From the NCBI GenBank assembly GCA_001785865.1, contig MFUZ01000006.1, positions 45,674 through 109,673 of the forward strand: a DNA stretch of 64,000 bases, given 5' to 3'. Under the pieces are notes generated by a model, which was not told the DNA's origin, did no database searches, and was given only the letters and a program-made list of their open reading frames with translations. Numbering within the stretch: position 1 is the first letter of the stretch; every line of letters starts with the position of its first letter. Below, in pieces: positions 12,226 through 58,892 of this stretch. Source of the DNA: Candidatus Nomurabacteria bacterium RIFCSPLOWO2_01_FULL_41_18 (lineage in GTDB: Bacteria > Patescibacteriota > Minisyncoccia > Phycocordibacterales > UBA9973). The position numbers and the translations under genes were made by a program.

Positions 12226-13881
12226 ATGAAAAATGAAAGACAAATTTGTGAACATTGTAAGCAAAACTTCGAAATATCGGAGGAGGAATTAAATTTATAT
12301 AAAAAAGTGGGAATTGAATTACCCACGTTGTGTTTTTTTTGCAGAATAAAATTGCACTTATCTTTTTGGATGTTTGGAAAATTTCGCAAAGGGAAGTCTG
12401 ATCTTTCTGGGGAAAGCTTGATCACTGTTTTACCCGCAAGCACTAGGTATCCTATTTATACTCTTACTGAATGGCACAGCGATAAATGGGATGCTATGGG
12501 TTACGGGGTAGATTATGATCCTAATGTTCCATTTTTCAAACAGTTGCAAGAACTACAAGAAAAAGTTCCTCACCCACACCAAAATGGCACCAAAAATACA
12601 AAATGCGATTGGTGTGATGATGTTTGGAATTCTAAAAATTGCTATCTGTCTCGTTCAATGGAAGAATGTGAGGATTTGTTTTATTCATATAGAAATGTAA
12701 AGGTAAAAAATTCCATCGATGCGACCATTTGTTTCAATTGCGAGAAGTGTTATGACTGTGGAGATTGTCACAATTCTTACAAGCTTTTTTACTCAAGACA
12801 TTCTAGAGATTGTATAGAATCAAGCTTTTTATACGATTGTAGGAATTGTCAGAACTGTTTTATGAGTTGGAATCTTCGCAATAAGTCCTATTGTATAGAA
12901 AATGTTCAATATACCAAAGAAGCCTATCAAGAAAAACTAAAATCTTTTCAACTAAATTCATATAAATCTTTACAAACTTTCAAAAAACGTTTTGAGGAAT
13001 TAGCACAAAAAGAAGCAGTTCATAGAGAAAATTTCAATTTTAAGGCACATAATTCTAACGGAAATTATTTATCAGATGTAAAAAATTGCCACAATTGCAA
13101 TACAATAAATGATTCTGAGGACAGTTATAATTGTATTAGGGGAATGAAACATAAATCAAACATAGATGCCAATGGTTGTTGGTATGTCGAATTGATAGGA
13201 AATTGTGCCAATTGTGTAAATTCTTATGCGCTCAAATACAGTAATTGGTCTTCTTCGCGGTATTCGGAATATTTAGATGTATGCATTGAGTGTGATTATT
13301 GTTTTGGTTGTGTTGGGCTTAAGAAAAAGAAATACTGTATTTTAAATAAACAATACACAAAAGAAGAATATGAGGTCTTGAAAGATAAAATTATTGAAGA
13401 TATGAAAAAAAGAGGGGAATATGGAAAATTCTTGCCATATTCTATGAGTGCTGGACCTTTTAATTTTTCAAACGGATTTTTCTACTTTCCAGAAACTAAA
13501 AAGGAAGGCGTTTTAAAATTAGGGGGTTATTGGGAAGATGTCGATGAAAGTCATATAGAAGGAATGCAGACAAATGAATTACCAGACTCTATAAAAGATG
13601 TTCCTGACACCATCATTACTCAAGCACTCATCTGTCCAGAGACTGGTTGGCGTTTCAATATAGCTCAGAATGAACTTTCTTTTTACAAAGCAAACAATAT
13701 TCCACCGCCCAGATATCATTTTGATGTCAGGACCAAAAATCAGTTAAAATATTTAACTGTTCTTCAATCTTACCCATATAAATGTTTTTACTGTAAAAAA
13801 GATATAATGGCTTATTATCCGAGCGAATGGGGATATGAGAAAATAGCATGCGAAGAGTGTTATAAACAAAATATAGCTTGA
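12226..13881 (+). CDS. cysteine-rich multi-zinc-ribbon protein, paralog 1 (zf-trcl-like termini plus central Cys ladder)
   Basis: N-terminus CEHCKQNFEISEEELNLYKKVGIELPTLCFFCR fits the zf-trcl pattern C-x2-C...F..FY....P..C-x2-CR. Central CxxC/CxNC repeats (CFNCEKCYDCGDC, CRNCQNCF, CANCVNSY, CIECDYCFGCVG). C-terminal ribbon ELSFYKANNIPPPRYHFDVR and CEECY. One of five paralogs in the window. Confidence 0.6.
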   Translation: MKNERQICEHCKQNFEISEEELNLYKKVGIELPTLCFFCRIKLHLSFWMFGKFRKGKSDLSGESLITVLPASTRYPIYTLTEWHSDKWDAMGYGVDYDPNVPFFKQLQELQEKVPHPHQNGTKNTKCDWCDDVWNSKNCYLSRSMEECEDLFYSYRNVKVKNSIDATICFNCEKCYDCGDCHNSYKLFYSRHSRDCIESSFLYDCRNCQNCFMSWNLRNKSYCIENVQYTKEAYQEKLKSFQLNSYKSLQTFKKRFEELAQKEAVHRENFNFKAHNSNGNYLSDVKNCHNCNTINDSEDSYNCIRGMKHKSNIDANGCWYVELIGNCANCVNSYALKYSNWSSSRYSEYLDVCIECDYCFGCVGLKKKKYCILNKQYTKEEYEVLKDKIIEDMKKRGEYGKFLPYSMSAGPFNFSNGFFYFPETKKEGVLKLGGYWEDVDESHIEGMQTNELPDSIKDVPDTIITQALICPETGWRFNIAQNELSFYKANNIPPPRYHFDVRTKNQLKYLTVLQSYPYKCFYCKKDIMAYYPSEWGYEKIACEECYKQNIA

Positions 13882-13924
13882 TACACATTTCAGCCATGGC
13901 GTAAATGTGTAAATTAAAAAAAAT

Positions 13925-15655
13925 ATGGAAACAAAAAGTGAAAATAGAATATGCAAAAACTGCAAAAAAGATTTTACGATAGAATCTGAGGATTTTAATT
14001 TTTACGAAAAGATAAAAGTTACACCGCCTACGTGGTGTGTAGATTGTAGGCAGCAAAGGAGATATGCTTGGAGAAATGAGCGAACTTTATATAGGAGAAA
14101 TTGTGATCTTTGCGGTAAAAGTACTGTGACTATTTATTCCTCCAATAAACATTACAAAGTTTATTGTAATGAGTGCTGGTGGGGAGATGGCTGGGATCCT
14201 GCCTCGTACGGTCGGGATTTTGATTTTACCAGGCCGTTCTTCGAGCAATTTGCAGAATTACAGCGCGATGTCCCGCGCATGGCACTTTTGAATAAAAGAA
14301 GTGTTAATTCCGAATATACAAACCATTCGGGGGATACTAAAAATTGCTATCTTTCTTTTGTGGCTTGGGAAAGTGAAAATATAATGTATAGCAATTGGGT
14401 TCAAAAATCGCGCGACTGCATGGATTGTGCTTATGTTCGAGAAAAGGGGGAACGTCTCTATGAAACTATTGATTCTAGAACCTCCTATCAATGTCAATAC
14501 AGTACCTTCTTAAAAGATTGTTCAAATTGCTATTATTGTTACGATTGTCGTGGATGCAATAATTGTTTTATGTCTTCAAATTTGCGTAATAAAAGCTATG
14601 TATTTAAAAATAAACAATATACTCGGGAAGAATATTTAGAAAAAATGAAAGAATACGAAATGTCTTCTTTTGTTGTTCGTGAAGGATTAAAAAAAGAATT
14701 TACAGACTTGCTAAAACAAGATAGTATTCATCGCTATGTTTTTAGTGAAAGAAGTATAAATTCTAATGGTTCTCTACTCTTTGATTGTAAAAAAGTTGCA
14801 AAGTCTTTTGAAGTTGATAAAAGTGAAGATTGTAAATATATTTACGGAGCTACTGAAATCAAAGATTCCATGGATGTATATCACATAGGTTTAAATACAA
14901 CTGAGCTTTGTTATGAACTTCAAGGGTGTACAAGGACGTCAAACTGCCAATTTTGCCACCTTTGTTATGACAACATGAATGTGATGTATTCTGACACTTG
15001 TCAAAATAGCCAGAATCTTTTTGGATGTGTCTCGGTGAAAAAGGGAGACTATATGATTTTTAACAAAAAATATAGTAAAACAGATTATGAAATATTAAAA
15101 AATAAGATTATTGAACATATGAAGAAAACAGGGGAGTATGGAGAATTTTTCCCTCCACAAATTGCGCCAGTTTATTATAATGAAACGCAGGGCAATCTAT
15201 ATATGCCGATGACGAAGGAAGAAGTGCTGGCAAAAGGCTGGCAATGGGAGGATAATATTCCCGGAACTTTTGGCAAGGAAACGATATCCAGTGGCTCTAT
15301 GCCAGATAAAATAGAAGACGTACCAGATAATTATTTAAATGAAATTTTTTCTTGTATGGAATGTTCCAAGAATTATAATATCACCAAAAATGAGCTTCTT
15401 TTCTATCGAAAGGAAAATTTACCGTTTCCAAGGCGATGCCCGAATTGCCGTTACAAGCGGAGGTTTGACATGCGTCCCGCCAGAAGATTATGGCATCGGA
15501 CTTGTATGTGTAGTCAAAATCATATTGGCCACAGTGGGTCCCCTCGCCTAGAAACAGGCGGGGCAAGTTGCCAAGTCGAATTTGAGACGTGCTACGCGCC
15601 CGAAAGACCAGAAAAAGTTTATTGTGAAAGCTGTTACAATAAGGAAGTATATTAG
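13925..15655 (+). CDS. cysteine-rich multi-zinc-ribbon protein, paralog 2
   Basis: ICKNCKKDFTIESEDFNFYEKIKVTPPTWCVDCRQQRR (zf-trcl-like), followed by a second ribbon CDLCGKS...CNECW. Central CSNCYYCYDCRGCNNCF. C-terminus CMECSKNYNITKNELLFYRKENLPFPRRCPNCRYKRR ... YCESCYNKEVY. Confidence 0.6.
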   Translation: METKSENRICKNCKKDFTIESEDFNFYEKIKVTPPTWCVDCRQQRRYAWRNERTLYRRNCDLCGKSTVTIYSSNKHYKVYCNECWWGDGWDPASYGRDFDFTRPFFEQFAELQRDVPRMALLNKRSVNSEYTNHSGDTKNCYLSFVAWESENIMYSNWVQKSRDCMDCAYVREKGERLYETIDSRTSYQCQYSTFLKDCSNCYYCYDCRGCNNCFMSSNLRNKSYVFKNKQYTREEYLEKMKEYEMSSFVVREGLKKEFTDLLKQDSIHRYVFSERSINSNGSLLFDCKKVAKSFEVDKSEDCKYIYGATEIKDSMDVYHIGLNTTELCYELQGCTRTSNCQFCHLCYDNMNVMYSDTCQNSQNLFGCVSVKKGDYMIFNKKYSKTDYEILKNKIIEHMKKTGEYGEFFPPQIAPVYYNETQGNLYMPMTKEEVLAKGWQWEDNIPGTFGKETISSGSMPDKIEDVPDNYLNEIFSCMECSKNYNITKNELLFYRKENLPFPRRCPNCRYKRRFDMRPARRLWHRTCMCSQNHIGHSGSPRLETGGASCQVEFETCYAPERPEKVYCESCYNKEVY

Positions 15656-15697
15656 AAATACTTATAACTCTGCTATCGCAGAAACATAAGTAAAATT

Positions 15698-17410
15698 ATG
15701 GAGTATAAAAACGCAAACAAAATATGTCAAAGTTGTCAGAAAAATTTTACGATAGAACCTGATGATTTTGGGTTTTACAAAAAGATAAAAGTCCCTCCGC
15801 CGACTTTTTGCCCGGAGTGTAGAAGAATGCGACGTTTTGCTCTCACAAATGAAACTGTGCTTTATAAGCGTAAATGTGATTTAACAAGGAAAGACATTTT
15901 TAGCATGTATCCTGAAAATACATTATTCCCAGTTTATGAGACAGATGCTTGGTATTCGGACGAGTGGGATCCGTATGAATACGGAATGGATTTTAATGAA
16001 AATAAACCGTTTCTCGAACAGATCCTAGAGCTCCAAAGTAAAGTACCTAGAATGTCGCTTGTGCGACAAGGTATGGCAGTAAATAGTCCTTATAATCATA
16101 GAGTCTCTGATCCAAAGAATTCTTATATGACTTTCCGGGCTTCTTATCCAGAAGATTGCTTATATTTGTATAATGGTAAATATACAAAAGACTGTGTTGA
16201 CTGTGCTTGGATCTTTGATTCTGAGCTTTGTTATGAATGTGTGAATGTTGAAAATTGTTATAATGTTAAATTTAGCCAAGAAAGTAAAGATTGTCGAGAT
16301 TCGTATTTCATTTATGCATGTAAAAATTGTTCAAATTGTGTTGGTTGTGTCAACCTTGTTAGTCAAGAATATTGTATTTGGAATCAGCGTTATTCTAGAG
16401 AGGAATATTTTAAAAAATTGGAAGAACTTAAATTAAATACTAGCTCAGGGATCAAAGAAATAGAAAAAAAATTACAAGAATTTAGGAAAAAACTTCCTCA
16501 ACGATACATGAGAACTGGAAAATCTGAGAATGTATCTGGAAATTGGTTTTCTAGTTGCAAAAATGTCCATGAGTCTTTTGATTGTGTTGACGTAAAAGAT
16601 GGCAAGCATTTATTTATGGTTTTTGGAGCTGAAGATTGCATGGATTATTACGAATGGGGTAATAAGGCTGAGCAGATTTATGAATCAGTGAATTGTGGGC
16701 TCAATATCACTCGGCTTTATTTTTGCAATCAATGCTGGATGGGGGCGACGGATTTGTATTACTGCAATACTTGCCCTGGAGCACGGAATTGTTTTGGCTG
16801 TGTTGGTCTTAAAAAGGGGGAGTACTCAATTTTAAATAAAAAGTATAGTAAACAGGAATATGAGACATTAAAAGAAAAAATAATTAAACAAATGAAAGAG
16901 GTGCCTTTCATAGACAAGCGTGGTTTGAAATATTATTTCGGAGAGGGTTTTCCGGAAATGTTTTCCGATTTTGCTTACAATGAGACTATTGCTAACTATC
17001 ATTTTCCATTATCTAAAGAAGAAGCTTTGTCGCGGAGATATACATGGAGAGATGTAGACAAAAAAGATTATAAAATAACCATAAAATCAAAAGATTTATC
17101 CGAGACTATTAAAGAAGTGGATGATTCTGTATTGAATGAGATTATAGAGTGTGAGGATAAAAAAAATACAGAATCCGTAGGGGCTTTTCGAATTACACAA
17201 AATGAATTAAATTTTTATAAGAAAATGAATTTACCTCTACCTAAAGCTTGTTTTAATATTCGTCATTTACGCCGGATGAACAAACGTCCACCTCTACGGA
17301 TGCTTAAAAGGAATTGTTCCAAATGCGAGATAGAGACTGAAACAGTCTATGACGAAAATTATGCACCGATAATTTATTGTGAACAATGCTATCAGCAAGA
17401 AGTTTACTAG
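15698..17410 (+). CDS. cysteine-rich multi-zinc-ribbon protein, paralog 3
   Basis: ICQSCQKNFTIEPDDFGFYKKIKVPPPTFCPECRRMRR. Central CKNCSNCVGCVN and CFGCVGLKKGEY. C-terminus ...YCEQCYQQEVY. Confidence 0.6.
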   Translation: MEYKNANKICQSCQKNFTIEPDDFGFYKKIKVPPPTFCPECRRMRRFALTNETVLYKRKCDLTRKDIFSMYPENTLFPVYETDAWYSDEWDPYEYGMDFNENKPFLEQILELQSKVPRMSLVRQGMAVNSPYNHRVSDPKNSYMTFRASYPEDCLYLYNGKYTKDCVDCAWIFDSELCYECVNVENCYNVKFSQESKDCRDSYFIYACKNCSNCVGCVNLVSQEYCIWNQRYSREEYFKKLEELKLNTSSGIKEIEKKLQEFRKKLPQRYMRTGKSENVSGNWFSSCKNVHESFDCVDVKDGKHLFMVFGAEDCMDYYEWGNKAEQIYESVNCGLNITRLYFCNQCWMGATDLYYCNTCPGARNCFGCVGLKKGEYSILNKKYSKQEYETLKEKIIKQMKEVPFIDKRGLKYYFGEGFPEMFSDFAYNETIANYHFPLSKEEALSRRYTWRDVDKKDYKITIKSKDLSETIKEVDDSVLNEIIECEDKKNTESVGAFRITQNELNFYKKMNLPLPKACFNIRHLRRMNKRPPLRMLKRNCSKCEIETETVYDENYAPIIYCEQCYQQEVY

Positions 17411-17447
17411 TATCTCTAATTCGCGCGAATAGGCGAATAGTTTAAAC

Positions 17448-19190
17448 ATGAATCAAGAAACCAGAAATTGTCAAAACTGCAAAAAAGATTTCACGATAGA
17501 GCCAGATGATTTTGGATTTTACACAAAGATCAAAGTCCCTCCGCCCACTTTTTGTCCTGAGTGCCGGAAAATTCGGCGGCTAGTGTGGCGCAACGAACGG
17601 GCATTGTATCGAAACAAATGTGATCTTTGTAAAAAAAATATTATTGCAATGTACAATGAGTCTGTACCTTTTCCTGTGTATTGTCACGCCTGCTGGTTAG
17701 GGGATGGATGGGATCCGCTTTCCTTCGGGCAGGATTATGATTTTTCACGTACATTTTTTGAACAATACAAGAAATTTTCCAAAATTGTGCCGAGAATAGC
17801 TCTTTGGCAGAGAAATTCTATAAATTCGGATTATTCGAATATGGTAGGTGAGTCCAGGAATGTTTACTTGTCTGTTTCCGTAGTGAAAGGATCTGAAAAT
17901 GTTTTTTATTCAAAATCTACAGATAAGTCTAAGGACATAATAGATTCTCTGAATATTATTGGGTCTGAAAATTTATATGAAAACATCGAAGGGCAAAGCA
18001 ATTATAATTCTCAATATCTTTTGCTTTGTCGGAGCTGTATAGATTCTTATTATCTGATCGATTGCGTAAACTGCAGCAATTGTGTCTTATCGAATAATTT
18101 ACGCAATAAACAGTTCTGTATTCGCAACGAGCAGTATACCAAAGAGGAATATCAAAAAAAGATTGATAAATTAAACTTAAAAAGCAGAGCTTCACGCGAG
18201 AAGCTCTGGAGAGAATTTGAAGAGGTGAGGGGCCACGCTATTTATCGTTTTGCCAATTTTACTAAATGTGTAAATGTTACAGGGAATAATCTTTTAAATG
18301 CAAAAAATTGCCAAAATTGTTTTGATGCTTATAACACAGAGAATATAAAATATGGCTACAGGGCGTTTGATTTAAAGGATTGCATGGATCTGGATTATGC
18401 AGCGTGGTCGGAGTTGCTATATGAATATACAACGGGCTCTTTGAATGACTATGATGTTAAGTTTTCTTACTCCGCAATGGATTCGGTGAGAAATGCTGAC
18501 TATACGGAGTTTTGTCGCAACTGCGTCAATATTTTCGGTTGTATTTCTCTCAACAATAAAGAAAATGCGATTTTTAATAAAGTTTATTCCAAAGAAGAAT
18601 TTGAAAAACTGCGCAACGAAATTATCAAGCAAATGAATGATTTACCATATAAAGACAAAGGAGGGAGGATTTATAGGTATGGTGAATTTTTTCCGATTGA
18701 GCTTTCTCCTTGGGCTTATAATGAAACTACAGCGCAGGAAGTCGCTCCTATTACCAAAGATTTTGCGGAAAGGAATGGATTTCCTTGGCGAGAACCGGAA
18801 GTTAAAAATTTTAATATTACGATTCCCGCAGAAAAAATTCCAGACAATATAGAAAAAGTAAATGAGAGTATTTTACAAGAAGTTCTGGAATGTGCTCATA
18901 AAGGAAAATGTGACCAACAATGCAACACAGTGTTTCGTTTGACTGATTATGAACTGAAGTTTTACAAACAACACAAGATTCCGTTGCCGATTCTTTGTCC
19001 GAATTGCCGTTATTATGAAAGAATCAAAATTATACCAGCATTTAAATTATTCGACAGGAGATGTATGTGTGATAAATATAACCATTTTCATGGAGCAGAG
19101 AAATGCACTTTAGAATTTGAAACTCCCTACGCGTCAAACCGGCCGGAAATAGTCTATTGCGAAAAATGTTATCAGCAGGAGGTGTATTAG
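17448..19190 (+). CDS. cysteine-rich multi-zinc-ribbon protein, paralog 4
   Basis: CQNCKKDFTIEPDDFGFYTKIKVPPPTFCPECRKIRR. Central CVNCSNCV. C-terminus LKFYKQHKIPLPILCPNCRYYER ... YCEKCYQQEVY. Confidence 0.6.
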   Translation: MNQETRNCQNCKKDFTIEPDDFGFYTKIKVPPPTFCPECRKIRRLVWRNERALYRNKCDLCKKNIIAMYNESVPFPVYCHACWLGDGWDPLSFGQDYDFSRTFFEQYKKFSKIVPRIALWQRNSINSDYSNMVGESRNVYLSVSVVKGSENVFYSKSTDKSKDIIDSLNIIGSENLYENIEGQSNYNSQYLLLCRSCIDSYYLIDCVNCSNCVLSNNLRNKQFCIRNEQYTKEEYQKKIDKLNLKSRASREKLWREFEEVRGHAIYRFANFTKCVNVTGNNLLNAKNCQNCFDAYNTENIKYGYRAFDLKDCMDLDYAAWSELLYEYTTGSLNDYDVKFSYSAMDSVRNADYTEFCRNCVNIFGCISLNNKENAIFNKVYSKEEFEKLRNEIIKQMNDLPYKDKGGRIYRYGEFFPIELSPWAYNETTAQEVAPITKDFAERNGFPWREPEVKNFNITIPAEKIPDNIEKVNESILQEVLECAHKGKCDQQCNTVFRLTDYELKFYKQHKIPLPILCPNCRYYERIKIIPAFKLFDRRCMCDKYNHFHGAEKCTLEFETPYASNRPEIVYCEKCYQQEVY

Positions 19191-24037: not shown

Positions 24038-25708
24038 ATGAATCAAGAAACTAAAAATTGTAAAAAGTGCAAGCAAGATTTTGTCTTAGATCAGAATGAT
24101 TTAGGTTTTTATGAAAAAATGAAAGTGCCCGTACCAAAAATTTGTCCGAACTGCCGTTTCAAGATGCGGGCGATGTTTAGAAATGAAACCACACTTTATT
24201 CTGGACGCAAATGCGCACTTTGTAATAATAATGTTATTTCAATGTATAATCCAAAATCTCCTTATGCTATCTATTGCTATAGATGTTTTTATTCTTCCAA
24301 GTGGGAAGCGAGGGATTATGCGATGGATTATGATGAAAAGAGATCTTTTATAGAACAGTTTGGTGAGTTACTCAAAAAAGTTCCCAAAATTACAACTTTC
24401 TTGTCAACTGGTTATGGTCTTAATGTAAATAGCGAATATTCGAATATGGCGAGTGGTTGCAAAAATTGCTATTTAGTTTTTAACACTGGGCCAGCGGAAG
24501 AAGTCTTGTACGCCCGGGGAATTAGAGATTGTCGTGACTGTGTTGATATGTATTTCGGAGTAAATGATGAACGTTGTTATGAATGTATAAATGTCCACCA
24601 GTCTTCCGGTATCCTCTCCGGTAAAAATGTTAATGGATCTGTAGATTGCTGTTTTGTGTTAAATTGTCGAAATGTGATGAATTGTTTTGGATGTGTGAAT
24701 TTAAATAATAAATCACACCATTTTTTAAATCAACCGATGTCGGGAGAAGAATACAAGAAAAAAGTAAGTGAAATTTTAGGTAGCTATAAAAAAACTGAAG
24801 AATTTAGAAAACAATTTGAAAAATTTACATTACAATTTCCAATGCGTGAGAATAATAATATAAAAACTACTAATTCAACTGGAGATTATTTGTTTGAGTG
24901 TAAAAATGTAAGAGATTCTTTCGAAATTACGAAAAGCGAAGATTGTCGCTACTTGTATTCTTCTAAAGAAATTAGGGATTCTGTTGGCACTATCGGTTAT
25001 GGGGTAAATTCGGAATGCTTATTGGAGGTAGTGGCTTCTGGACAATCCAGTAACTGCATAGGTTCTTATGGCCTCGAACACTCCAGTGATATTTTATATG
25101 GATTTTATACTTCCAAATGCCAAGACTGCATTGGTTGTGATGGGCTGAAAAATGGAAAATATTTTATTTTAAATAAACAATATGAACAAGCTGAATACGA
25201 GAGGCTCAGAGAAAAAATTATTCAAGAACTAAAAGAAAAAGATTTATATGGATTGATGATACCGCCAGAACTTGCCCCCTTTGCCTACAATGAAACGATT
25301 GCGCAAGACAGTATGCCTCTCACCAAGGAAGAAGCTTTGGCGCAGGGTTTTCGTTGGGAAGAAGACATACAAAAGACAGAAGGAAAGGAAACAGTTGATC
25401 CGGAAAACATTTCGGACCATATAAAAGATGTAAAAGATTCTATAACCAACGAGATTTTAAGATGTATAGATTGCAATAGAAACTATAAAATCATAGATCA
25501 AGAGCTTATGTTTTACAGGAAAATGAATATTCCGCTTCCTAGAAAGTGTTTTTATTGTAGGCACCGGGATCGTATTGTCAAACGTGGCCCATACAAATTC
25601 TGGAATAGGAATTGTGCAAAATGCAATATGGAGATTATGACAAATTATTCACCTGAAAGACCAGAAATTGTATACTGCGAGAAATGTTATCAGCAGGAAG
25701 TTTATTAG
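24038..25708 (+). CDS. cysteine-rich multi-zinc-ribbon protein, paralog 5
   Basis: CKKCKQDFVLDQNDLGFYEKMKVPVPKICPNCRFKMR. Central CRNVMNCFGCVN and CIGCDGLKNGKY. C-terminus LMFYRKMNIPLPRKCFYCRHRDR ... YCEKCYQQEVY. Confidence 0.6.
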   Translation: MNQETKNCKKCKQDFVLDQNDLGFYEKMKVPVPKICPNCRFKMRAMFRNETTLYSGRKCALCNNNVISMYNPKSPYAIYCYRCFYSSKWEARDYAMDYDEKRSFIEQFGELLKKVPKITTFLSTGYGLNVNSEYSNMASGCKNCYLVFNTGPAEEVLYARGIRDCRDCVDMYFGVNDERCYECINVHQSSGILSGKNVNGSVDCCFVLNCRNVMNCFGCVNLNNKSHHFLNQPMSGEEYKKKVSEILGSYKKTEEFRKQFEKFTLQFPMRENNNIKTTNSTGDYLFECKNVRDSFEITKSEDCRYLYSSKEIRDSVGTIGYGVNSECLLEVVASGQSSNCIGSYGLEHSSDILYGFYTSKCQDCIGCDGLKNGKYFILNKQYEQAEYERLREKIIQELKEKDLYGLMIPPELAPFAYNETIAQDSMPLTKEEALAQGFRWEEDIQKTEGKETVDPENISDHIKDVKDSITNEILRCIDCNRNYKIIDQELMFYRKMNIPLPRKCFYCRHRDRIVKRGPYKFWNRNCAKCNMEIMTNYSPERPEIVYCEKCYQQEVY

Positions 25709-29158: not shown

Positions 29159-30085
29159 ATGAAAATTTTAGATGTTGGCCCAGGCCAGATCGGGAATGAG
29201 CTTGCCTTACAGGCTCACGGAAGGGGTCACACGACCTCTTTCTTCGGACGAAACGATCCGAAAAACACATTCCGCCAGAGAGCGGAGGAGAGTGATGTCG
29301 TGGCTATCACAATCCCTAGCGAAGGTGGGGGTGACGATGAAGTTTTCTACGCACTTGAAAGTCTTGCGGCGGGCAAACCTGTTGCAATCGCGGCAAAGTG
29401 TGCAAATGCTTACCAGTCTGAAAAGATCAAACCCCATCTTTCGCAAATGGGTATAACCACCACAGCGGGAGGGCCGAGTGGAATGCTTAACCTTATCTTG
29501 ACGCCACAGCTTGGCCTCAGGAAGATCGTGACAATTCCAAACGGAACCCTTTGCTTCATGTTCAGCCGAACAGCAGAGGGGGTGCCTTGGGAGCAGGCTT
29601 TGGAAGAGGCTACCAAGGAAGGGCTTACCGAGGGTGGATCTGGTTTGGAAGAAGTGTTCCGTGGAGAGACATGGGATACGATCTTGAAAACGTCAGGCAT
29701 CGGAAATCTTGCAGGGATCTTTCGAGAGCCTTTGATTCCGGACGAGTTCAGCACTTCGATACTTAGCAAGACGGAAATCTTGCGATTACTCGGAGCAAAA
29801 AAATTCCGTTTCATCGTACGGATGGTTAAACAGCCAAGAAGCAAAACCTATTCGTGCTTTCCGGGATTTTATGTTCGGAAAGAAGGTTGGGACATCATTG
29901 GTGAATTCGCGGAGCCGGATCAGTCTGAGTTTCTTGGCAATGTTCCGTGTGGCAAGCAAAACACGCTCATCACCTGGAACTACGCTGGCAGGAACCAAAT
30001 CACCGGCGACGGCGCCGGAATCAAAGCAACTGCGAGTACATTGCTCGGAGAGCTCGAGTGGCTTCATGCAAATCGAAAAAACTAA
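29159..30085 (+). CDS. homoserine dehydrogenase-like NAD(P)-binding protein (GC-rich gene)
   Basis: N-terminal GxGxxG (VGPGQIG). ALESLAAGKPVAIAAKCA resembles HSDH ALeaGkhVVTANKA. IPNGTLCFMFSRTAEGVPWEQALEEATKEGLTE resembles ILNGTTNfIL..M...g.sf.eaL.eAq.lGyaE. GC is visibly higher than in flanking genes. No thrB or thrC nearby. Confidence 0.45.
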   Translation: MKILDVGPGQIGNELALQAHGRGHTTSFFGRNDPKNTFRQRAEESDVVAITIPSEGGGDDEVFYALESLAAGKPVAIAAKCANAYQSEKIKPHLSQMGITTTAGGPSGMLNLILTPQLGLRKIVTIPNGTLCFMFSRTAEGVPWEQALEEATKEGLTEGGSGLEEVFRGETWDTILKTSGIGNLAGIFREPLIPDEFSTSILSKTEILRLLGAKKFRFIVRMVKQPRSKTYSCFPGFYVRKEGWDIIGEFAEPDQSEFLGNVPCGKQNTLITWNYAGRNQITGDGAGIKATASTLLGELEWLHANRKN

Positions 30086-35687: not shown

Positions 35688-35799
35688 AGGGCTATTCTAC
35701 CACAGCCGGCGAATTGTAAAACTCCCGAAAGTGCTTAAAACTGTTATTAATATGTGGACAAGATCGCAAAAAGAAGGTTTTTATGCTAAAATAACCAGG

Positions 35800-36750
35800 A
35801 TGAATAAAAAAATATCTTTATCGGGAATTCAGCCTTCAGGGAGACCTCACATCGGGAATTATTTTGGCATGATGAAGCAACTCATAAGCCACCAGGAGGA
35901 ATTCGACGTTTATGCTCTGATTGTGGACTATCATGCCATGAAATCAGTGCGCAATCCAGCAGAAATGAAGGAGAATATAATAAATGTCGTGCTTGACTAT
36001 TTAGCTTTGGGTCTCGACTCGAAAAAAGTCACTTTTTTTAAGCAATCGGATGTGTCGGAGCACACCGAGCTTTGTTGGATTTTTGACACTATTACCACTA
36101 TGCCTTACCTCATGCGCGCCCATGCCTTCAAAGATGCACAAGCGAAAAATAAAGAGATTGATGTGGGGACCTTCAATTATCCGGTTTTGATGGCGGCTGA
36201 TATTTTGCTTTACAATCCGGACATAATTCCTGTCGGCGCCGATCAGAAGCAACATGTGGAAATTTCCCGGAACATAGCCGAAAAATTTAACAATACTTTT
36301 GGGGAAACCTTCAAATTGCCAGAGGCGATGATCATGAAAGAGATGGCGGTCATCCCGGGAACGGACGGGCGCAAGATGTCGAAGAGTTACAACAATACCA
36401 TCCCGCTTTTCGCCGAATATGAAGAGATAAAGAAATGCGTGATGAGCATCGTGACTGATTCTGGAGGGGGAATTCCACAAAATGTGTTTGCTATACACAA
36501 GCTTTTTCGTAATGAAAATGAATTAAAGAAAATTTATGAGGAAAAAGCGGGGAAATATAAAGAGCTCAAAGAAATGCTTATAGAAGATCTGGAGAAATTT
36601 ATAGCACCACTACGTGAAAGGCGAAAAGAATTTGCCAAGGATATTCCAAAGGCCCTCGCGGTATTAAGAGAGGGAGGGGAGAAGGCTAAAAAAGTCGCCT
36701 CAAAGAAGATGGATGAGATAAGAGAGAAAATCGGGGTGAAAGTTTATTAA
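35800..36750 (+). CDS. trpS: tryptophanyl-tRNA synthetase
   Basis: SGIQPSGRPHIGNYFG (HIGH-like) and KMSKS. The start is set at MNKKISL, because the upstream part of the ORF overlaps the dnaB N-terminus. Confidence 0.88.
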   Translation: MNKKISLSGIQPSGRPHIGNYFGMMKQLISHQEEFDVYALIVDYHAMKSVRNPAEMKENIINVVLDYLALGLDSKKVTFFKQSDVSEHTELCWIFDTITTMPYLMRAHAFKDAQAKNKEIDVGTFNYPVLMAADILLYNPDIIPVGADQKQHVEISRNIAEKFNNTFGETFKLPEAMIMKEMAVIPGTDGRKMSKSYNNTIPLFAEYEEIKKCVMSIVTDSGGGIPQNVFAIHKLFRNENELKKIYEEKAGKYKELKEMLIEDLEKFIAPLRERRKEFAKDIPKALAVLREGGEKAKKVASKKMDEIREKIGVKVY

Positions 36751-36753
36751 AAT

Positions 36754-37050
36754 ATGAAACATATTAGTAAAAAAATTCCAGAATACAAACAGGAACTGGT
36801 TGAAGTTTTTTCTAAGATTCATGGGGATAAAAATCTCATGAAAGAATTTTTAACAGATGTTCTAACACCAGCAGAATTTGAAGGTTTAGCTTTGCGCTGG
36901 CAAATAGTTAAGAAATTAAATAAAGGCGAGACTCATCGGTCGGTAGCAGGGGATTTAGGTTTAGGTATAAGTACCGTAACTCGTGGCTCTCGGGAGCTTC
37001 GCAATAAAAATGGAGGTTTCCACTTAATGTTGAAGAAACTAAGTAAATAA
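36754..37050 (+). CDS. TrpR-family (YerC/YecD-like) DNA-binding protein
   Basis: LTPAEFEGLALRWQIVKKLNKGETHRSVAGDLGLGISTVTRGSRELRN matches the TrpR-like HTH pattern (..R..I...L..G.sqR.i...LGvs.aTItRGS..L). Confidence 0.7.
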   Translation: MKHISKKIPEYKQELVEVFSKIHGDKNLMKEFLTDVLTPAEFEGLALRWQIVKKLNKGETHRSVAGDLGLGISTVTRGSRELRNKNGGFHLMLKKLSK

Positions 37051-37087
37051 AGAATTAACACCCTACAGTTTTATAAAAGTTATCCCC

Positions 37088-37135
37088 AATGCAATTTGCA
37101 TTATTTTTTTACTATGTTATCATGTACTAGTACAT
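37088..37135. promoter_or_regulatory. two perfect palindromes (AATGCAAtTTGCATT and ATGTACTAGTACAT); candidate TrpR-type operator
   Basis: 37088-37102 is a 15-bp perfect palindrome and 37122-37135 a 14-bp perfect palindrome. The second contains GTACTAGTAC, whose ACTAGT core matches the E. coli TrpR operator half-sites (CGAACTAGTTAACTAGTACG). They lie directly downstream of the TrpR-like gene and about 240 nt upstream of the TrpE-like gene. Confidence 0.45.
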
Positions 37136-37376
37136 AGATACAGAGGTAAGGGTGTTTATGTGAGAAAATATAAAAACATGAAAAACAAATTTCAAATAAA
37201 CAAAACAAGGAAGGGGAAGTCATGGTGGGGCGTAAAAAGCTTAAGTTTTTCGGCTTTTGCGTCTGTCTGTTGATTTCTTTTTACTCTATTTAAAACAAGG
37301 AATCCATTGAGTGGCGCACGAGCGTCATTTTTAGTTCTTTGATAGTAAACCTTAACAATTCAACAACAGGAGAGTT

Positions 37377-38876
37377 ATGAAAACTAATTCAATTGAAATT
37401 TTTCCGAGCTTGGAAGAGTTTCGGAATTTGTCGGTGAAAGGTAACCTTGTGCCAGTGTTTGCGATACTAAGTTCTGATAACGACACCCCTGTCCAAGTGT
37501 TTCAGAAACTTCGGACGGAGTATTCTTTTCTTCTTGAGTCTGCAGAACGGACGGGACAAATGGGGCGGTACTCATTTGTGGGTAGGAATCCGGTCGTTAT
37601 TTTTCGCAGTAGTGGAAAGACTATCACTATTACCGAAGGGGGAAACATTCAGACTTTTGAAGTGAAGGATGATCCTCTTTCGGAATTAGAACGTTTCATG
37701 AGTCGGTATCGTTACGTGCCCATTACTGGTCTGCCTCAATTTACTGGAGGGGCAGTTGGTTATTTGGGTTACGAAGCCGTTTGTTCCTTTGAACCCAAGA
37801 AACTCAAGGTAGCGAAAAATGACGTTCTAGCGACTCCAGAGAATATCTTCATGATTGCAGAGCAAGTAGTGTGCTTCGATCATTTAGAGCGTCGCTTGTA
37901 TCTCATCTCCAACGCTTCCATTGCAGATGGAGATGTCGCTGGAGCATACGAGAAGGCTTGCCGGGAAGTGGTGGAGCTTGCAAATAGTCTACAGAAGCCC
38001 CCAAACTTACCTTATGTTTCGTATCAAAACAAAATTCCTGAAATTAGTTTTAAAAGCAATCTCACAGAAGGACGATTCAAGGAAATGGTGGGAGAGGCGA
38101 AAAAGTTAATTCTCTCTGGGGATATAATACAAGTTGTCTTGTCTCAAAGGTTTGAAGTGGAATACACAGGAGATCCTCTTCATCTTTATCGGACACTGTG
38201 GATGGTCAATCCTTCGCCCTATATGTTTTGCATTACTTTTGGAAATGAACTTTCGATTGTCGGAGGTTCTCCTGAAGTGCATGTGAAATGCATAGACGGC
38301 AAAGTGCAGATACGTCCTATCGCTGGAACAAGAAAACGGGGTGAAACTCCCGAAAAAGATGCGGAGCTTGCAGTAGAGCTTCTCGAAGATCCAAAGGAGC
38401 AAGCAGAACATGTGATGCTTCTTGATTTGGCACGCAATGACATTGGCAGAATCGCAAAATATGGATCAGTTAAGGTGACCGAGAAATTCCAGATTGAGAG
38501 ATTTAGTCATGTCATGCACATCGTGTCAAACGTTGTTGGGGAGAAATTAGATGGTCTTAGTTCATACGATGTTATGCGAGCTAGCTTTCCTGCAGGTACT
38601 GTTTCTGGAGCACCCAAAGTTCGTGCAATGCAGATCATAAGCGAGCTTGAGCTAGACAAGAGGGGTGTCTATTCAGGAGCTGTCGGGTACTTTGGTTTTG
38701 ACGGCAATCTTGATTCCTGTATTGCACTTCGCACTGTTGTCATAAAAGATGGCAAGGCATATGTGCAGGCTGGAGCTGGAATTGTTCATGAATCAACACC
38801 CGAGGGTGAATTTGAGGAAACTCGAAACAAAGCTCGGGGAATGTTGCTCGCCATCGCTCGAGCAAATGCAATGTGA
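37377..38876 (+). CDS. anthranilate synthase component I family (TrpE/PabB-type chorismate-utilising enzyme)
   Basis: LLEDPKEQAEHVMLLDLARNDIGRI matches the AEHxMLVDLxRND motif. PYMFCITFGNELSIVGGSPE, IRPIAGT.KRG and GAGIVHESTPEGEFEETRNKA are also present. GC is visibly higher than in neighbouring genes. Confidence 0.8.
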   Translation: MKTNSIEIFPSLEEFRNLSVKGNLVPVFAILSSDNDTPVQVFQKLRTEYSFLLESAERTGQMGRYSFVGRNPVVIFRSSGKTITITEGGNIQTFEVKDDPLSELERFMSRYRYVPITGLPQFTGGAVGYLGYEAVCSFEPKKLKVAKNDVLATPENIFMIAEQVVCFDHLERRLYLISNASIADGDVAGAYEKACREVVELANSLQKPPNLPYVSYQNKIPEISFKSNLTEGRFKEMVGEAKKLILSGDIIQVVLSQRFEVEYTGDPLHLYRTLWMVNPSPYMFCITFGNELSIVGGSPEVHVKCIDGKVQIRPIAGTRKRGETPEKDAELAVELLEDPKEQAEHVMLLDLARNDIGRIAKYGSVKVTEKFQIERFSHVMHIVSNVVGEKLDGLSSYDVMRASFPAGTVSGAPKVRAMQIISELELDKRGVYSGAVGYFGFDGNLDSCIALRTVVIKDGKAYVQAGAGIVHESTPEGEFEETRNKARGMLLAIARANAM

Positions 38877-38896: not shown

Positions 38897-38923
38897 GGCG
38901 TTGCGCGATATTCGCGCAACGCC
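38897..38923. terminator. GC-rich hairpin after the TrpE-like gene
   Basis: GGCGTTGCGCGA-tat-TCGCGCAACGCC, a 12-bp perfect stem. The U-tract on the + side is weak; there is an A-run upstream. Confidence 0.45.
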
Positions 38924-38966: not shown

Positions 38967-39656
38967 ATGAAAACTGTAGGAATAATTGGTGGTCTTGGAC
39001 CAGAAACAACGTCTGAATTTTATTTAGAACTAATTTTCTCGTGTCGAAAAATAAATCGAATTAATTATCCACATATTTTAATAAATAGTATTCCTTTACC
39101 ATTTAACATAGAAGAGAGTGCAATTGCTGAGGGAGTGGGAGAGGAAAAATGTTTACCATATCTTATTGATTCCGCAAAGAGCTTAGAAAAAGCTGGTGCT
39201 AATTTTTTAGTACTACCATGTAACTCTCTACATGTATTTATAAATGATATTAGAAATGCAGTAAAAATTCCTGTTTTGAGTATTTTAGAGGAAACTGCTA
39301 AATTTCTGAAAAATGAAGGAGTAGGAAAAGTTGGGATTATAGCCACTCCGATAACAATTAGAAATAAACTATATGAAAAATTCTTAACAAGGGGTGGAAT
39401 TAGACAAATAACGCCTGACAGTCTTCAGCAAGCCAAAATAGGAAAATTAATTCACAATCTTGTTTCAAATAGATATGACAATAGAGATAGAGAGCTATTA
39501 ATAAAAATAATTGAAGATTTTGCTAAAGGAAAAGTTGAGCATGTTATTTTAGCTTGCACAGATTTGCAATTATTAATGCCTCAACATAATGATATAAAAA
39601 TCTATGACACAATGAAAATTTTAGCTGATGCAACAGTAAAGAAAATTGTGTCGTAA
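38967..39656 (+). CDS. Asp/Glu racemase family protein (aspartate racemase-like)
   Basis: GIIGGLGPETTSEFY, LVLPCNSLH and ILACTDLQLL correspond to the two catalytic Cys motifs of PF01177. Confidence 0.75.
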   Translation: MKTVGIIGGLGPETTSEFYLELIFSCRKINRINYPHILINSIPLPFNIEESAIAEGVGEEKCLPYLIDSAKSLEKAGANFLVLPCNSLHVFINDIRNAVKIPVLSILEETAKFLKNEGVGKVGIIATPITIRNKLYEKFLTRGGIRQITPDSLQQAKIGKLIHNLVSNRYDNRDRELLIKIIEDFAKGKVEHVILACTDLQLLMPQHNDIKIYDTMKILADATVKKIVS

Positions 39657-58822: not shown

Positions 58823-58840
58823 GTCCTGATATATAGTTAT

Positions 58841-58870
58841 TACGTAATAGATTACGTAATCTATTACGTA
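58841..58870. promoter_or_regulatory. 30-bp perfect palindrome made of three TACGTA hexamers
   Basis: TACGTAATAGATTACGTAATCTATTACGTA. Verified base by base as a perfect inverted repeat. Located 19 nt from the start of the - gene at 58822 and 23 nt upstream of the rpmA start. Confidence 0.5.
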
Positions 58871-58892
58871 TTTATTCTAACATAAAAACAAT

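Follow-up and report, generated by a model that had tools for sequence, protein, structure and literature searches.

A lone trpE gene in a Nomurabacteria genome, probably under two layers of tryptophan control: a TrpR operator and a leader-peptide attenuator

Bacteria of the candidate phyla radiation are commonly said to lack amino-acid biosynthesis, and knowledge of their gene regulation is very scarce. Here we describe a tryptophan control region that precedes a solitary trpE gene (anthranilate synthase component I) in a 64,000-nucleotide stretch of contig MFUZ01000006.1 from Candidatus Nomurabacteria bacterium RIFCSPLOWO2_01_FULL_41_18 (hereafter "the window", meaning the whole stretch analysed), just downstream of the genes for a tryptophan--tRNA ligase (trpS) and a Trp-repressor-family protein (trpR). 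Several described systems come close to this arrangement. In Chlamydia trachomatis, trpR is followed by a 348-bp intergenic region with its own promoter and then by trpBA; the TrpR operator lies upstream of trpR, the intergenic region is under the control of YtgR, and the annotated leader peptide TrpL is atypical and has been doubted (PMC7755916). In Sinorhizobium meliloti, a leader-peptide attenuator precedes trpE(G), the first pathway gene only, and a trans-activity of the attenuator RNA, rnTrpL, has been demonstrated (PMC6614838). In the Microgenomates, a trp repressor gene heads the TrpRS-A operons, and regulation by tryptophan was suggested by Mukai et al. in 2017 (PMC5370408). This was the only related report that we found in the literature on the Patescibacteria, the candidate phyla radiation, and the Nomurabacteria, where our search brought up neither a TrpR operator nor a Trp attenuator described before.

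The genes and sites with which the argument begins are as follows.

35797-36750, plus strand: trpS, which encodes tryptophan--tRNA ligase and leads the trpS-trpR pair (TIGR00233, 293 bits; cutoff 177)
36754-37050, plus strand: trpR, 98-amino-acid protein of the Trp-repressor family (PF01371, 63.1 bits against a gathering score of 27)
37095-37123, plus strand: promoter-like site of the sigma-70 type, TTTGCA, a 17-nt spacer, and TATCAT, with TG at 37115-37116 as an extended -10 (consensus scan, 9/12 plus the TG)
37122-37135, no strand: putative TrpR operator ATGTACTAGTACAT, core GTACTAGTAC (conservation and co-variation with TrpR)
37178-37273, plus strand: trpL-like leader open reading frame (ORF) of 31 codons, MKNKFQINKTRKGKSWWGVKSLSFSAFASVC, followed by its stop codon (ORF scan and comparison)
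37377-38876, plus strand: trpE, anthranilate synthase component I, with the Shine-Dalgarno sequence AGGAG at 37368-37372 and no trpG on its 3' side (TIGR00564)

A first-pass annotation of this DNA had placed a TrpR-family gene right after trpS, followed by a 326-nt spacer and a component-I gene, and profile matches confirm these coordinates. It had also reported two palindromes in the spacer, AATGCAATTTGCATT at 37088-37102 and ATGTACTAGTACAT at 37122-37135, and both lie exactly there. Because trpR starts only 3 nt past the trpS stop codon, the two genes are probably co-transcribed and translationally coupled. The annotation went on to propose that a TrpR-like repressor controls trpE. This part of the proposal stands, by way of the second palindrome; what was overlooked is the attenuator layer. 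The spacer appears, from the comparisons described below, to be mainly a ribosome-mediated Trp attenuator with its own leader peptide, and we consider it quite probable that trpE is under two-layer tryptophan control, exerted by a TrpR operator and a leader-peptide attenuator.

For the operator, 80 related metagenome loci were fetched with a TrpR alignment. In all 72 loci that have at least 115 nt past the trpR stop codon, a palindrome centred on ACTAGT occurs 23-125 nt (median 69) beyond that stop, and the perfect palindromes at these loci typically span 12-18 bp. The 10-mer core is always symmetric, and is GTACTAGTAC in 51 loci, ATACTAGTAT in 11, GCACTAGTGC in nine, and ACACTAGTGT in one. 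These cores co-vary with the protein. A G at the outer position (GTAC... or GCAC...) is paired with an arginine at the residue equivalent to Arg69 in 52 of 52 cases, and an A at that position, in the core ATACTAGTAT, is paired with Gln, Val, Ala, or Thr at the same residue in 13 of 13. The core GCACTAGTGC (GCAC...GTGC) is paired with Met for the Ile79 equivalent in all nine cases, and with Met replacing Glu81 in eight of the nine. In the 1988 crystal structure of the TrpR-operator complex, Arg69 reportedly makes the sole direct base contact, to the G of GTACTAG, and the outer G of the operator described here occupies the same relative position. Operator classes that track TrpR residues in this way are what would be expected of a real protein-DNA pair.

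It should be mentioned that the palindromes are statistically unremarkable by themselves: the window contains 11 perfect palindromes of 14 nt and 11 of the 7+1+7 form, against about 5-6 in shuffled sequences. Because such palindromes are common, the case rests on the comparison with relatives, together with the uniqueness of the 10-mer GTACTAGTAC, which occurs once in the window. The palindrome at 37122-37135 takes in the final 2 nt of the -10 box as well as the place near 37130 where transcription is expected to start, and the promoter hexamers are aligned and kept across the related loci. The ACTAGT core had been likened to a TrpR operator site in the first-pass annotation, and its conservation and co-variation bear out that likeness. 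In other words, a TrpR-family repressor very probably controls the promoter before trpE via the ACTAGT palindrome, because the palindrome overlaps the -10 box and the start site, is conserved in 72 of 72 loci, and co-varies with a protein whose tryptophan- and DNA-binding residues are conserved. In a distant clade (L154-L166), there are two CTAG blocks 8 bp apart (ACTAGCATACTAGT, ACTAGTATACTAGT). Five members of that clade (L157, L159, L162, L165, and L166) also have a further CATACTAGTATG site in the trpS-trpR interval, 34-54 nt 5' of trpR, which suggests that trpR is autoregulated in the distant clade and not in the window.

In the Protein Data Bank (PDB), the 98-residue protein matches E. 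coli TrpR best (E=5e-7), and the YerC/YecD-like "TrpR-like" chains 3g1c, 3kor, and 3frw rank lower. The protein does not pass the NCBI equivalog model for the trp operon repressor (TIGR01321, 48.4 bits against a cutoff of 67.25), and the YerC/YecD model scores it lower still, at 28.3 bits (cutoff 42.2); it is therefore best described as a divergent TrpR and not as an automatic equivalog. In the alignment to 1tro and 6f7f, the E. coli residues T44, R54, R69, I79, T81, T83, R84, G85, and S86, those that bind L-tryptophan and DNA, correspond to T38, R48, R62, I72, T74, T76, R77, G78, and S79, and these are invariant or nearly so in the TrpR alignment of the related loci. There are 336 close homologues of this TrpR. 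Among the 120 matches listed, which are 80-95% identical, every source name is Nomurabacteria, Parcubacteria, or Patescibacteria. The public record of this protein, OGI68585.1, reads "hypothetical protein" at NCBI and "Transcriptional regulator" in UniRef.

The second layer lies between the operator and trpE. In the leader ORF, which begins with ATG, two tandem Trp codons, TGG TGG, occupy 37223-37228, and the stop codon TGA (37271-37273) sits in the invariant sequence GTTGATTTCTT. About 45 distinct loci have this ORF, with the consensus MKNNFKINKLMKSWWGAK..AFA.FC. Depending on the locus, 36, 39, or 48 nt separate the Trp codons from the stop, and the TGA is always in frame. In the N-terminal part of the leader, the third codon positions vary most (entropy 1.22 bits, against 0.72 and 0.91 at the other two), and tandem tryptophans are encoded in 36 of the 41 distinct leaders that make up the attenuator alignment. 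The RNA elements that follow are listed here.

37229-37263, plus strand: hairpin 1:2, formed by segment 1, GGCGUAAAAA (37229-37238), and segment 2, CUUUUGCGUC (37254-37263) (covariation, RNAalifold)
37269-37307, plus strand: hairpin B:C, formed by GUUGAUUUCUU (37269-37279, which holds the leader stop) and AAGGAAUCCAU (37297-37307) (covariation)
37258-37318, plus strand: antiterminator, segment 2 UGCGUC (37258-37263) with segment 3 GGCGCA (37313-37318), B:C nested within it (covariation and masked fold)
37309-37340, plus strand: attenuator terminator 3:4, stem 37309-37317 / 37322-37330, loop ACGA, then UUUUAGUUCUUU (terminator scan)

Segment 1 directly abuts the Trp codons. Across the 41 leaders, hairpin 1:2 has 87% of its alignment cells paired and double changes at seven of its ten pairs, and it is present in the minimum free energy (MFE) fold of the window's leader. 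Hairpin B:C has 95.7% of cells paired, with a compensatory change at columns 67/109 (CG 38, UA 3), and RNAalifold adds to it the pair 59/117, which occurs as four types (GU 22, GC 10, UA 4, AU 3). The antiterminator 2:3 is paired in 98% of cells, and its columns 53/123 are CG in 28 leaders, UG in eight, and UA in five. The terminator 3:4, whose stem the terminator scan places at 37309-37330 with the U-run TTTTAGTTCTTT after it, is paired in 93%; the pair 122/139 is UA in 18 leaders and CG in 17, and the pair 121/140 appears as five pair types. For the terminated conformation as a whole, 88% of cells are paired and 13 pairs show double changes, a value reached by none of 500 shuffles. For the antiterminator conformation as a whole, 96.7% are paired, with the compensatory changes at columns 53/123 and 67/109. 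RNAalifold recovers 1:2, B:C, and 3:4 independently.

The folding energies are consistent with these alternatives. The window's leader folds better than all 200 of its shuffles (MFE z=-3.2). In the ribosome-free fold, an extended 1:2 hairpin forms at -26.8 kcal/mol and leaves segment 3 free. When 37209-37242 is masked, to mimic a ribosome stalled at the Trp codons, and the RNA stops at 37321, before segment 4, the MFE structure is 2:3 together with B:C, at -16.7 kcal/mol; the terminator alone has a dG of -11.1 kcal/mol. A covariance model built from the alignment of the 41 leaders has a single match in the window, at 37211-37340 (103 bits, E=5e-16). In the Nomurabacteria it matches more than 50 sites after trpR, whereas 19 TrpE loci from other phyla contain no match. 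Two further pairings were considered and set aside. The helix A:B, between GAAAUC on the 5' side of the Trp codons and GAUUUC, is 83% paired with almost no covariation, and is kept as optional. A long-range pairing of 37267-37283 with 37353-37369, near the trpE Shine-Dalgarno sequence, was dropped because it is not conserved in relatives.

A conserved leader of this kind might also be an untranslated RNA sensor, binding tRNA-Trp in the manner of a T-box or bound by a protein in the manner of TRAP, with the WW-coding ORF merely incidental. The window's leader ORF has no strong ribosome-binding site, and the invariance of several nucleotides, such as GGAAUCCA and GUUCUUUG, exceeds the demands of pairing; both points would fit such a sensor. 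On the other hand, the TGG codons hardly vary, the 36-, 39-, and 48-nt variants all keep the stop in frame, and the variability shows a codon-position periodicity. The position of segment 1 right after the Trp codons and of the stop in segment B is what a ribosome-sensing design requires, and TRAP-type repeats of (G/U)AG triplets were not observed. Rfam gives no match in the whole window at its gathering score, and at E<=10 only chance miRNA and snoRNA matches between 36700 and 37500, with the T-box absent here too. An assignment to the T-box or to a known Trp leader family was thus rejected, and we consider an untranslated sensor very unlikely. The leader would work like trpL, yet it appears to form a separate sequence family.

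Combining the two layers, the control of trpE can be pictured as follows. The trpS-trpR transcript would end at a weak hairpin with a T-run, in overlap with the -35 box of the promoter that follows. At high tryptophan, a TrpR dimer loaded with L-tryptophan would bind ATGTACTAGTACAT, which reaches from the end of the -10 box over the start site, and block initiation. Transcripts that escape this block would carry the 31-codon leader ORF with its TGG TGG. When charged tRNA-Trp is low, the ribosome would stall at TGG TGG and cover segment 1, 2:3 would form around B:C or stacked on it, and the polymerase would enter trpE. When tRNA-Trp is ample, the ribosome would reach the UGA in segment B and cover segments 2 and B, so that 3:4 would terminate transcription at about 37340. 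In the absence of translation, 1:2 would form and 3:4 would again terminate.

Several points weigh against this two-layer control. The role of tryptophan as a co-repressor, the transcription start, and the efficiency of termination are all deduced. On the side of the operator, the window has a single CTAG block, against the two blocks 8 bp apart in E. coli, and the three classes of operator and TrpR may reflect only two evolutionary events. On the side of the leader, the window's ORF has no clear Shine-Dalgarno sequence (AAGGA or GAGGA is present in some relatives), and five of the 41 leaders have a single Trp codon. The terminator is modest, at -11 kcal/mol for nine pairs with G-U among them, and interruptions break up its U-run; the run of L001, one of the two relatives in which trpE also follows, is poor (CCCUGUUCUU). 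The full-length equilibrium fold keeps the terminator even under the mask of a stalled ribosome, and the switch must therefore be kinetic, as in E. coli. Lastly, this TrpE stands without TrpG or a chorismate pathway across 74 kb.

The first of the two palindromes appears to have a different role from the second, and it lies beside a further conserved motif.

37088-37109, plus strand: palindrome 1, AATGCAATTTGCATT, with a T7 run, putative weak intrinsic terminator of trpS-trpR (hairpin kept in relatives)
37079-37088, plus strand: GTTATCCCCA, one mismatch from GTTATCCACA (conserved place in relatives)

The 3' arm of palindrome 1 is the -35 box of the next promoter. Its sequence varies among loci; what is kept is a hairpin of 4-6 bp, with the 3' arm in TTGCNN, and then a T-rich run. 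The arms are GGTGC/GCACT, GGCGC/GCGCT, GGAGGC/GCCTCC, or AGCA/TGCT in different loci. The hairpin has a dG of -2 kcal/mol or lower in about 71% of 55 loci, with a mean of -3.2 against -1.6 for shuffles. With moderate confidence, we regard palindrome 1 as a weak intrinsic terminator for trpS-trpR, some of whose bases also belong to the promoter that follows; as a second operator it was dropped, because only complementarity and the T-run are conserved. The adjoining sequence GTTATCCACA contains the DnaA-box consensus TTATCCACA, which 44 of 60 distinct loci (L087-L166) have just 5' of the -35 hairpin. No enrichment of this motif was found elsewhere in the window, and the cumulative GC skew indicates no origin at 37079-37088. 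The motif may be a site for DnaA or for another regulator.

These results also bear on a simpler explanation, namely that TrpR alone acts through two operator palindromes on a trpE that arrived recently as the gene of a GC-rich island. Both palindromes do exist, and the GC content of trpE (0.443) exceeds that of its two neighbours, trpR (0.354) and the downstream racemase gene (0.301). The first-pass annotation had noted this difference from the flanking genes and had thought of horizontal acquisition. The difference holds against the two immediate neighbours only: among the genes of the window, whose overall GC content is 40%, trpE ranks 12th of 52 in GC (z=0.91), 27th in GC at third codon positions (z=0.18), and eighth of 31 long genes in codon-usage distance, and dnaK, rpoA, and rpsD share its GC. 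The composition, which was calculated for GC and codon usage, thus marks trpE as ordinary for the window and gives no support for a recent transfer. The distribution of the gene is more favourable to transfer: among about 60 distinct loci, only three (the window, L001, and L115) have trpE after the trpS-trpR cassette. In a reference-genome scan, the one close relative of this TrpE was that of L001 (Candidatus Nomurabacteria Ike-100m-2), with 77% identity; the next matches, with 49-53%, are from the Verrucomicrobia, Kiritimatiellia, Lentisphaerae, and other PVC bacteria. No TrpR was found near the PVC TrpE loci. However, the identity of TrpE to L001 is the same as that of TrpS, and any transfer is therefore old. 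Furthermore, TrpR acting alone leaves the conserved WW leader and the alternative hairpins unexplained. On balance, we find TrpR acting alone on a recently transferred gene decidedly unlikely, and prefer the operator and the attenuator together.

The enzyme itself, of 499 residues, is a bona fide TrpE, intact and under purifying selection. The first-pass annotation had left open whether it was TrpE-like or PabB-like, and the TrpE half of that description is the one that holds. The TIGR00564 (trpE_most) model gives 542.2 bits against a cutoff of 517.7 and is the only equivalog model passed; PabB models give 232-315 bits against cutoffs of 328-622, and isochorismate- and salicylate-synthase models also remain far below theirs. 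The best PDB matches are TrpE chains (E of about 1e-100). Aligned to the mycobacterial TrpE 7bvd, the protein shows the catalytic and feedback-site motifs of TrpE, namely LLES, NPSPYM, PIAGT, AEHxML (as AEHVML), and GAGIV; the motif AEHxMLxDLxRND, read earlier in the component-I gene, is present as AEHVMLLDLARND. The dN/dS ratio of trpE is 0.07-0.08 against both L001 and L115, and its dN is equal to that of trpS. The public record, OGI68584.1, likewise reads anthranilate synthase component I, Candidatus Nomurabacteria bacterium. That the enzyme is instead aminodeoxychorismate synthase (PabB, of the folate branch) or another chorismate-utilising enzyme could be argued from a Bacillus-type PabB chain, whose E of 1e-94 in the PDB search comes close to the 1e-100 of the TrpE chains, and from PIAGT being common to both types. 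The profile scores, the presence of the tryptophan feedback-site motifs LLES and NPSPYM, and the wiring of the gene to two tryptophan sensors all count against PabB, and we hold this identity to be extremely unlikely.

A tblastn search with all ORFs of about 160 related loci brought up no trpG, trpD, trpC, trpF, trpB, trpA, or aro gene in the window, which bears out the earlier remark that trpG, trpD, trpC, trpB, and trpA are missing from it; the 10 kb to its left have none either, and the remainder of the genome lay outside the search. In L002, the nearest TrpE locus outside the Nomurabacteria group, trpG overlaps the trpE stop. An isolated TrpE can convert chorismate to anthranilate with ammonia, without TrpG, and ammonia-dependent conversion of chorismate to anthranilate is most likely the activity of the window's enzyme.

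The trpS-trpR pair is kept in nearly all of the 80 related loci, and the genes that follow it differ widely. The main sets of downstream genes ("cargo") are listed below.

L001, 7789-13095: trpE, an aroA-aroK fusion, an aroQ-aroE fusion, DAHP synthase, and aroB
L106, 4316-8037: a trpD-trpC-trpF triple fusion, then trpB
L104, 1132-3794: a small ORF, trpB, trpA, a second leader, another small ORF, and a racemase
L144: IGPS (trpC) and a gene of the class-V aminotransferase fold (kynureninase-like)
Other loci: a racemase, a PEP-utilising enzyme, unknown proteins of 430-480 amino acids, and small ORFs

From these comparisons, the conserved unit is trpS-trpR with the sensor cassette, which holds this place all through the Nomurabacteria clade, and not trpE; the cargo is unusually modular. 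An Asp/Glu-type racemase recurs, directly 3' of the operator in L113 and L127 and after the second leader in L104, and could be related to tryptophan (a D/L-aromatic racemase?). In L087, L114, L124, and L126, the TrpS encoded before trpR shares just 34-37% identity with that of the window, where the other loci reach 70-86%; another TrpRS type has apparently replaced the synthetase in these four loci, with trpR and the operator retained. The sequence GTTCTTTG, right after the attenuator terminator (37330-37341 and equivalent positions), is conserved beyond the needs of a U-run, and a second AGTTCTTTAACAA lies further 3' in L001, L101, L115, L119, L149, and L164; enrichment of AGTTCTTTR elsewhere in the window was looked for and not found. 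GTTCTTTG might mark a boundary of cargo exchange.

This modularity can be read in two other ways. The cassette's own leader RNA, its peptide, or both might act in trans, as rnTrpL and peTrpL do in Sinorhizobium, with trpE as interchangeable and possibly dispensable cargo. The cassette is far more conserved than the genes downstream, the cargo varies and includes small unknown ORFs, and there is a precedent for a trans-acting trp attenuator RNA (PMC6614838). Nevertheless, many of the cargo genes belong to the tryptophan pathway (trpE, trpDCF, trpB, and trpBA), and trpE is under strong purifying selection. No target sites were found, and none were sought. Action in trans would supplement attenuation in cis and not replace it, and as an account of this locus we rate it improbable. 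A broader speculation, unlikely although worth stating, is that the cassette is a fixed "tryptophan-hunger socket" in the Nomurabacteria that takes varied cargo, whether fragments of the tryptophan pathway (trpE alone, trpE with aro genes, trpDCF with trpB, or trpBA), a racemase, or unknown genes, the cargo being swapped at GTTCTTTG. The pathway would then be split between episymbiont lineages and their hosts, and the organism of the window would make anthranilate on tryptophan starvation, for a partner to process further into tryptophan or as a signal, and not tryptophan itself.

Two features lie 3' of trpE.

38897-38923, no strand: GC-rich hairpin of 12 bp 3' of trpE (hairpin/terminator scan)
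38967-39656, plus strand: amino-acid racemase of the Asp/Glu type (TIGR00035, 180 bits)

The hairpin has a clean T-run on the minus strand only, and it probably ends the trpE transcript. The racemase may belong to the regulon in this window. More widely, the gene set of the window includes dnaK, dnaJ, ribosomal proteins, several aminoacyl-tRNA synthetases, and five paralogous zinc-ribbon proteins, and resembles that of a candidate-phyla-radiation genome. The five paralogues (12226-19190 and 24038-25708; four in tandem) are about 550-580 amino acids long, with an N-terminal CxxC...CxxC zinc ribbon (MNQETRNCQNCKKDFTIEPDDFGFY...) and a GC content of 0.33-0.36. At 58840-58875, between rpmA (L27) and a divergent gene, three palindromes of the ATTACGTAAT type spaced about 11 bp apart resemble an operator array. 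A 308-residue ORF at 29159-30085, with a weak homoserine-dehydrogenase-like match, exceeds every other gene of the window in GC content (0.504) and in the deviation of its codon usage, and is a better candidate for foreign origin than trpE.

If the two-layer control of trpE is correct, the locus offers a readable circuit of a sensor protein, an operator, a promoter, a leader peptide, and an RNA switch, backed by dozens of uncultured relatives and by a correlation in protein-DNA specificity. Such a circuit would imply coupled transcription and translation, and the sensing of charged tRNA-Trp, in these organisms. The covariance model and the operator motif provide a starting point for annotating tryptophan-responsive genes in the Patescibacteria. 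A constrained TrpE without TrpG or a visible pathway, and pathway fragments spread among relatives, bear on the metabolic dependence between episymbiont and host.

Among the described systems, the trp control region of E. coli has the same two-layer logic (PMC7755916). Both have a repressor of the same family with its key residues kept, an ACTAGT/CTAG operator over the -10 box, a short leader ORF with tandem Trp codons, the alternatives 1:2, 2:3, and 3:4, and a stop codon at a position that lets a terminating ribosome block segment 2; the paired CTAG blocks 8 bp apart are shared by the distant clade (L154-L166) only, and the window's operator has one block where E. coli has two. The window's leader differs in having no sequence or Rfam similarity to that of E. 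coli and in the extra constant hairpin B:C inside the antiterminator. Furthermore, trpR lies directly upstream, joined to the trpS operon, whereas trpR is unlinked in E. coli, and a lone trpE is regulated instead of trpEDCBA, in a bacterium of the candidate phyla radiation.

The Chlamydia region resembles the window in having trpR directly before a partial trp pathway, with an intergenic region of about 330-350 nt that contains a promoter, in a reduced, host-dependent genome, but in the window the operator and a canonical WW leader both lie inside the spacer. Sinorhizobium shares the leader-peptide attenuator before trpE; it differs in having no TrpR, a TrpE fused to TrpG, and the remaining pathway elsewhere in the genome. 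The operons of Mukai et al. 2017 (PMC5370408) likewise link a TrpR gene to a tryptophanyl-tRNA synthetase gene in genomes of the candidate phyla radiation; there, however, the synthetase is the archaeal-type TrpRS-A with tRNA-Trp, trpR comes first, and no operator, leader peptide, or attenuator was described. In other words, the mechanism is a textbook one, and what is new is the lineage, the linkage to trpS, the nested hairpin B:C, and the interchangeable cargo.

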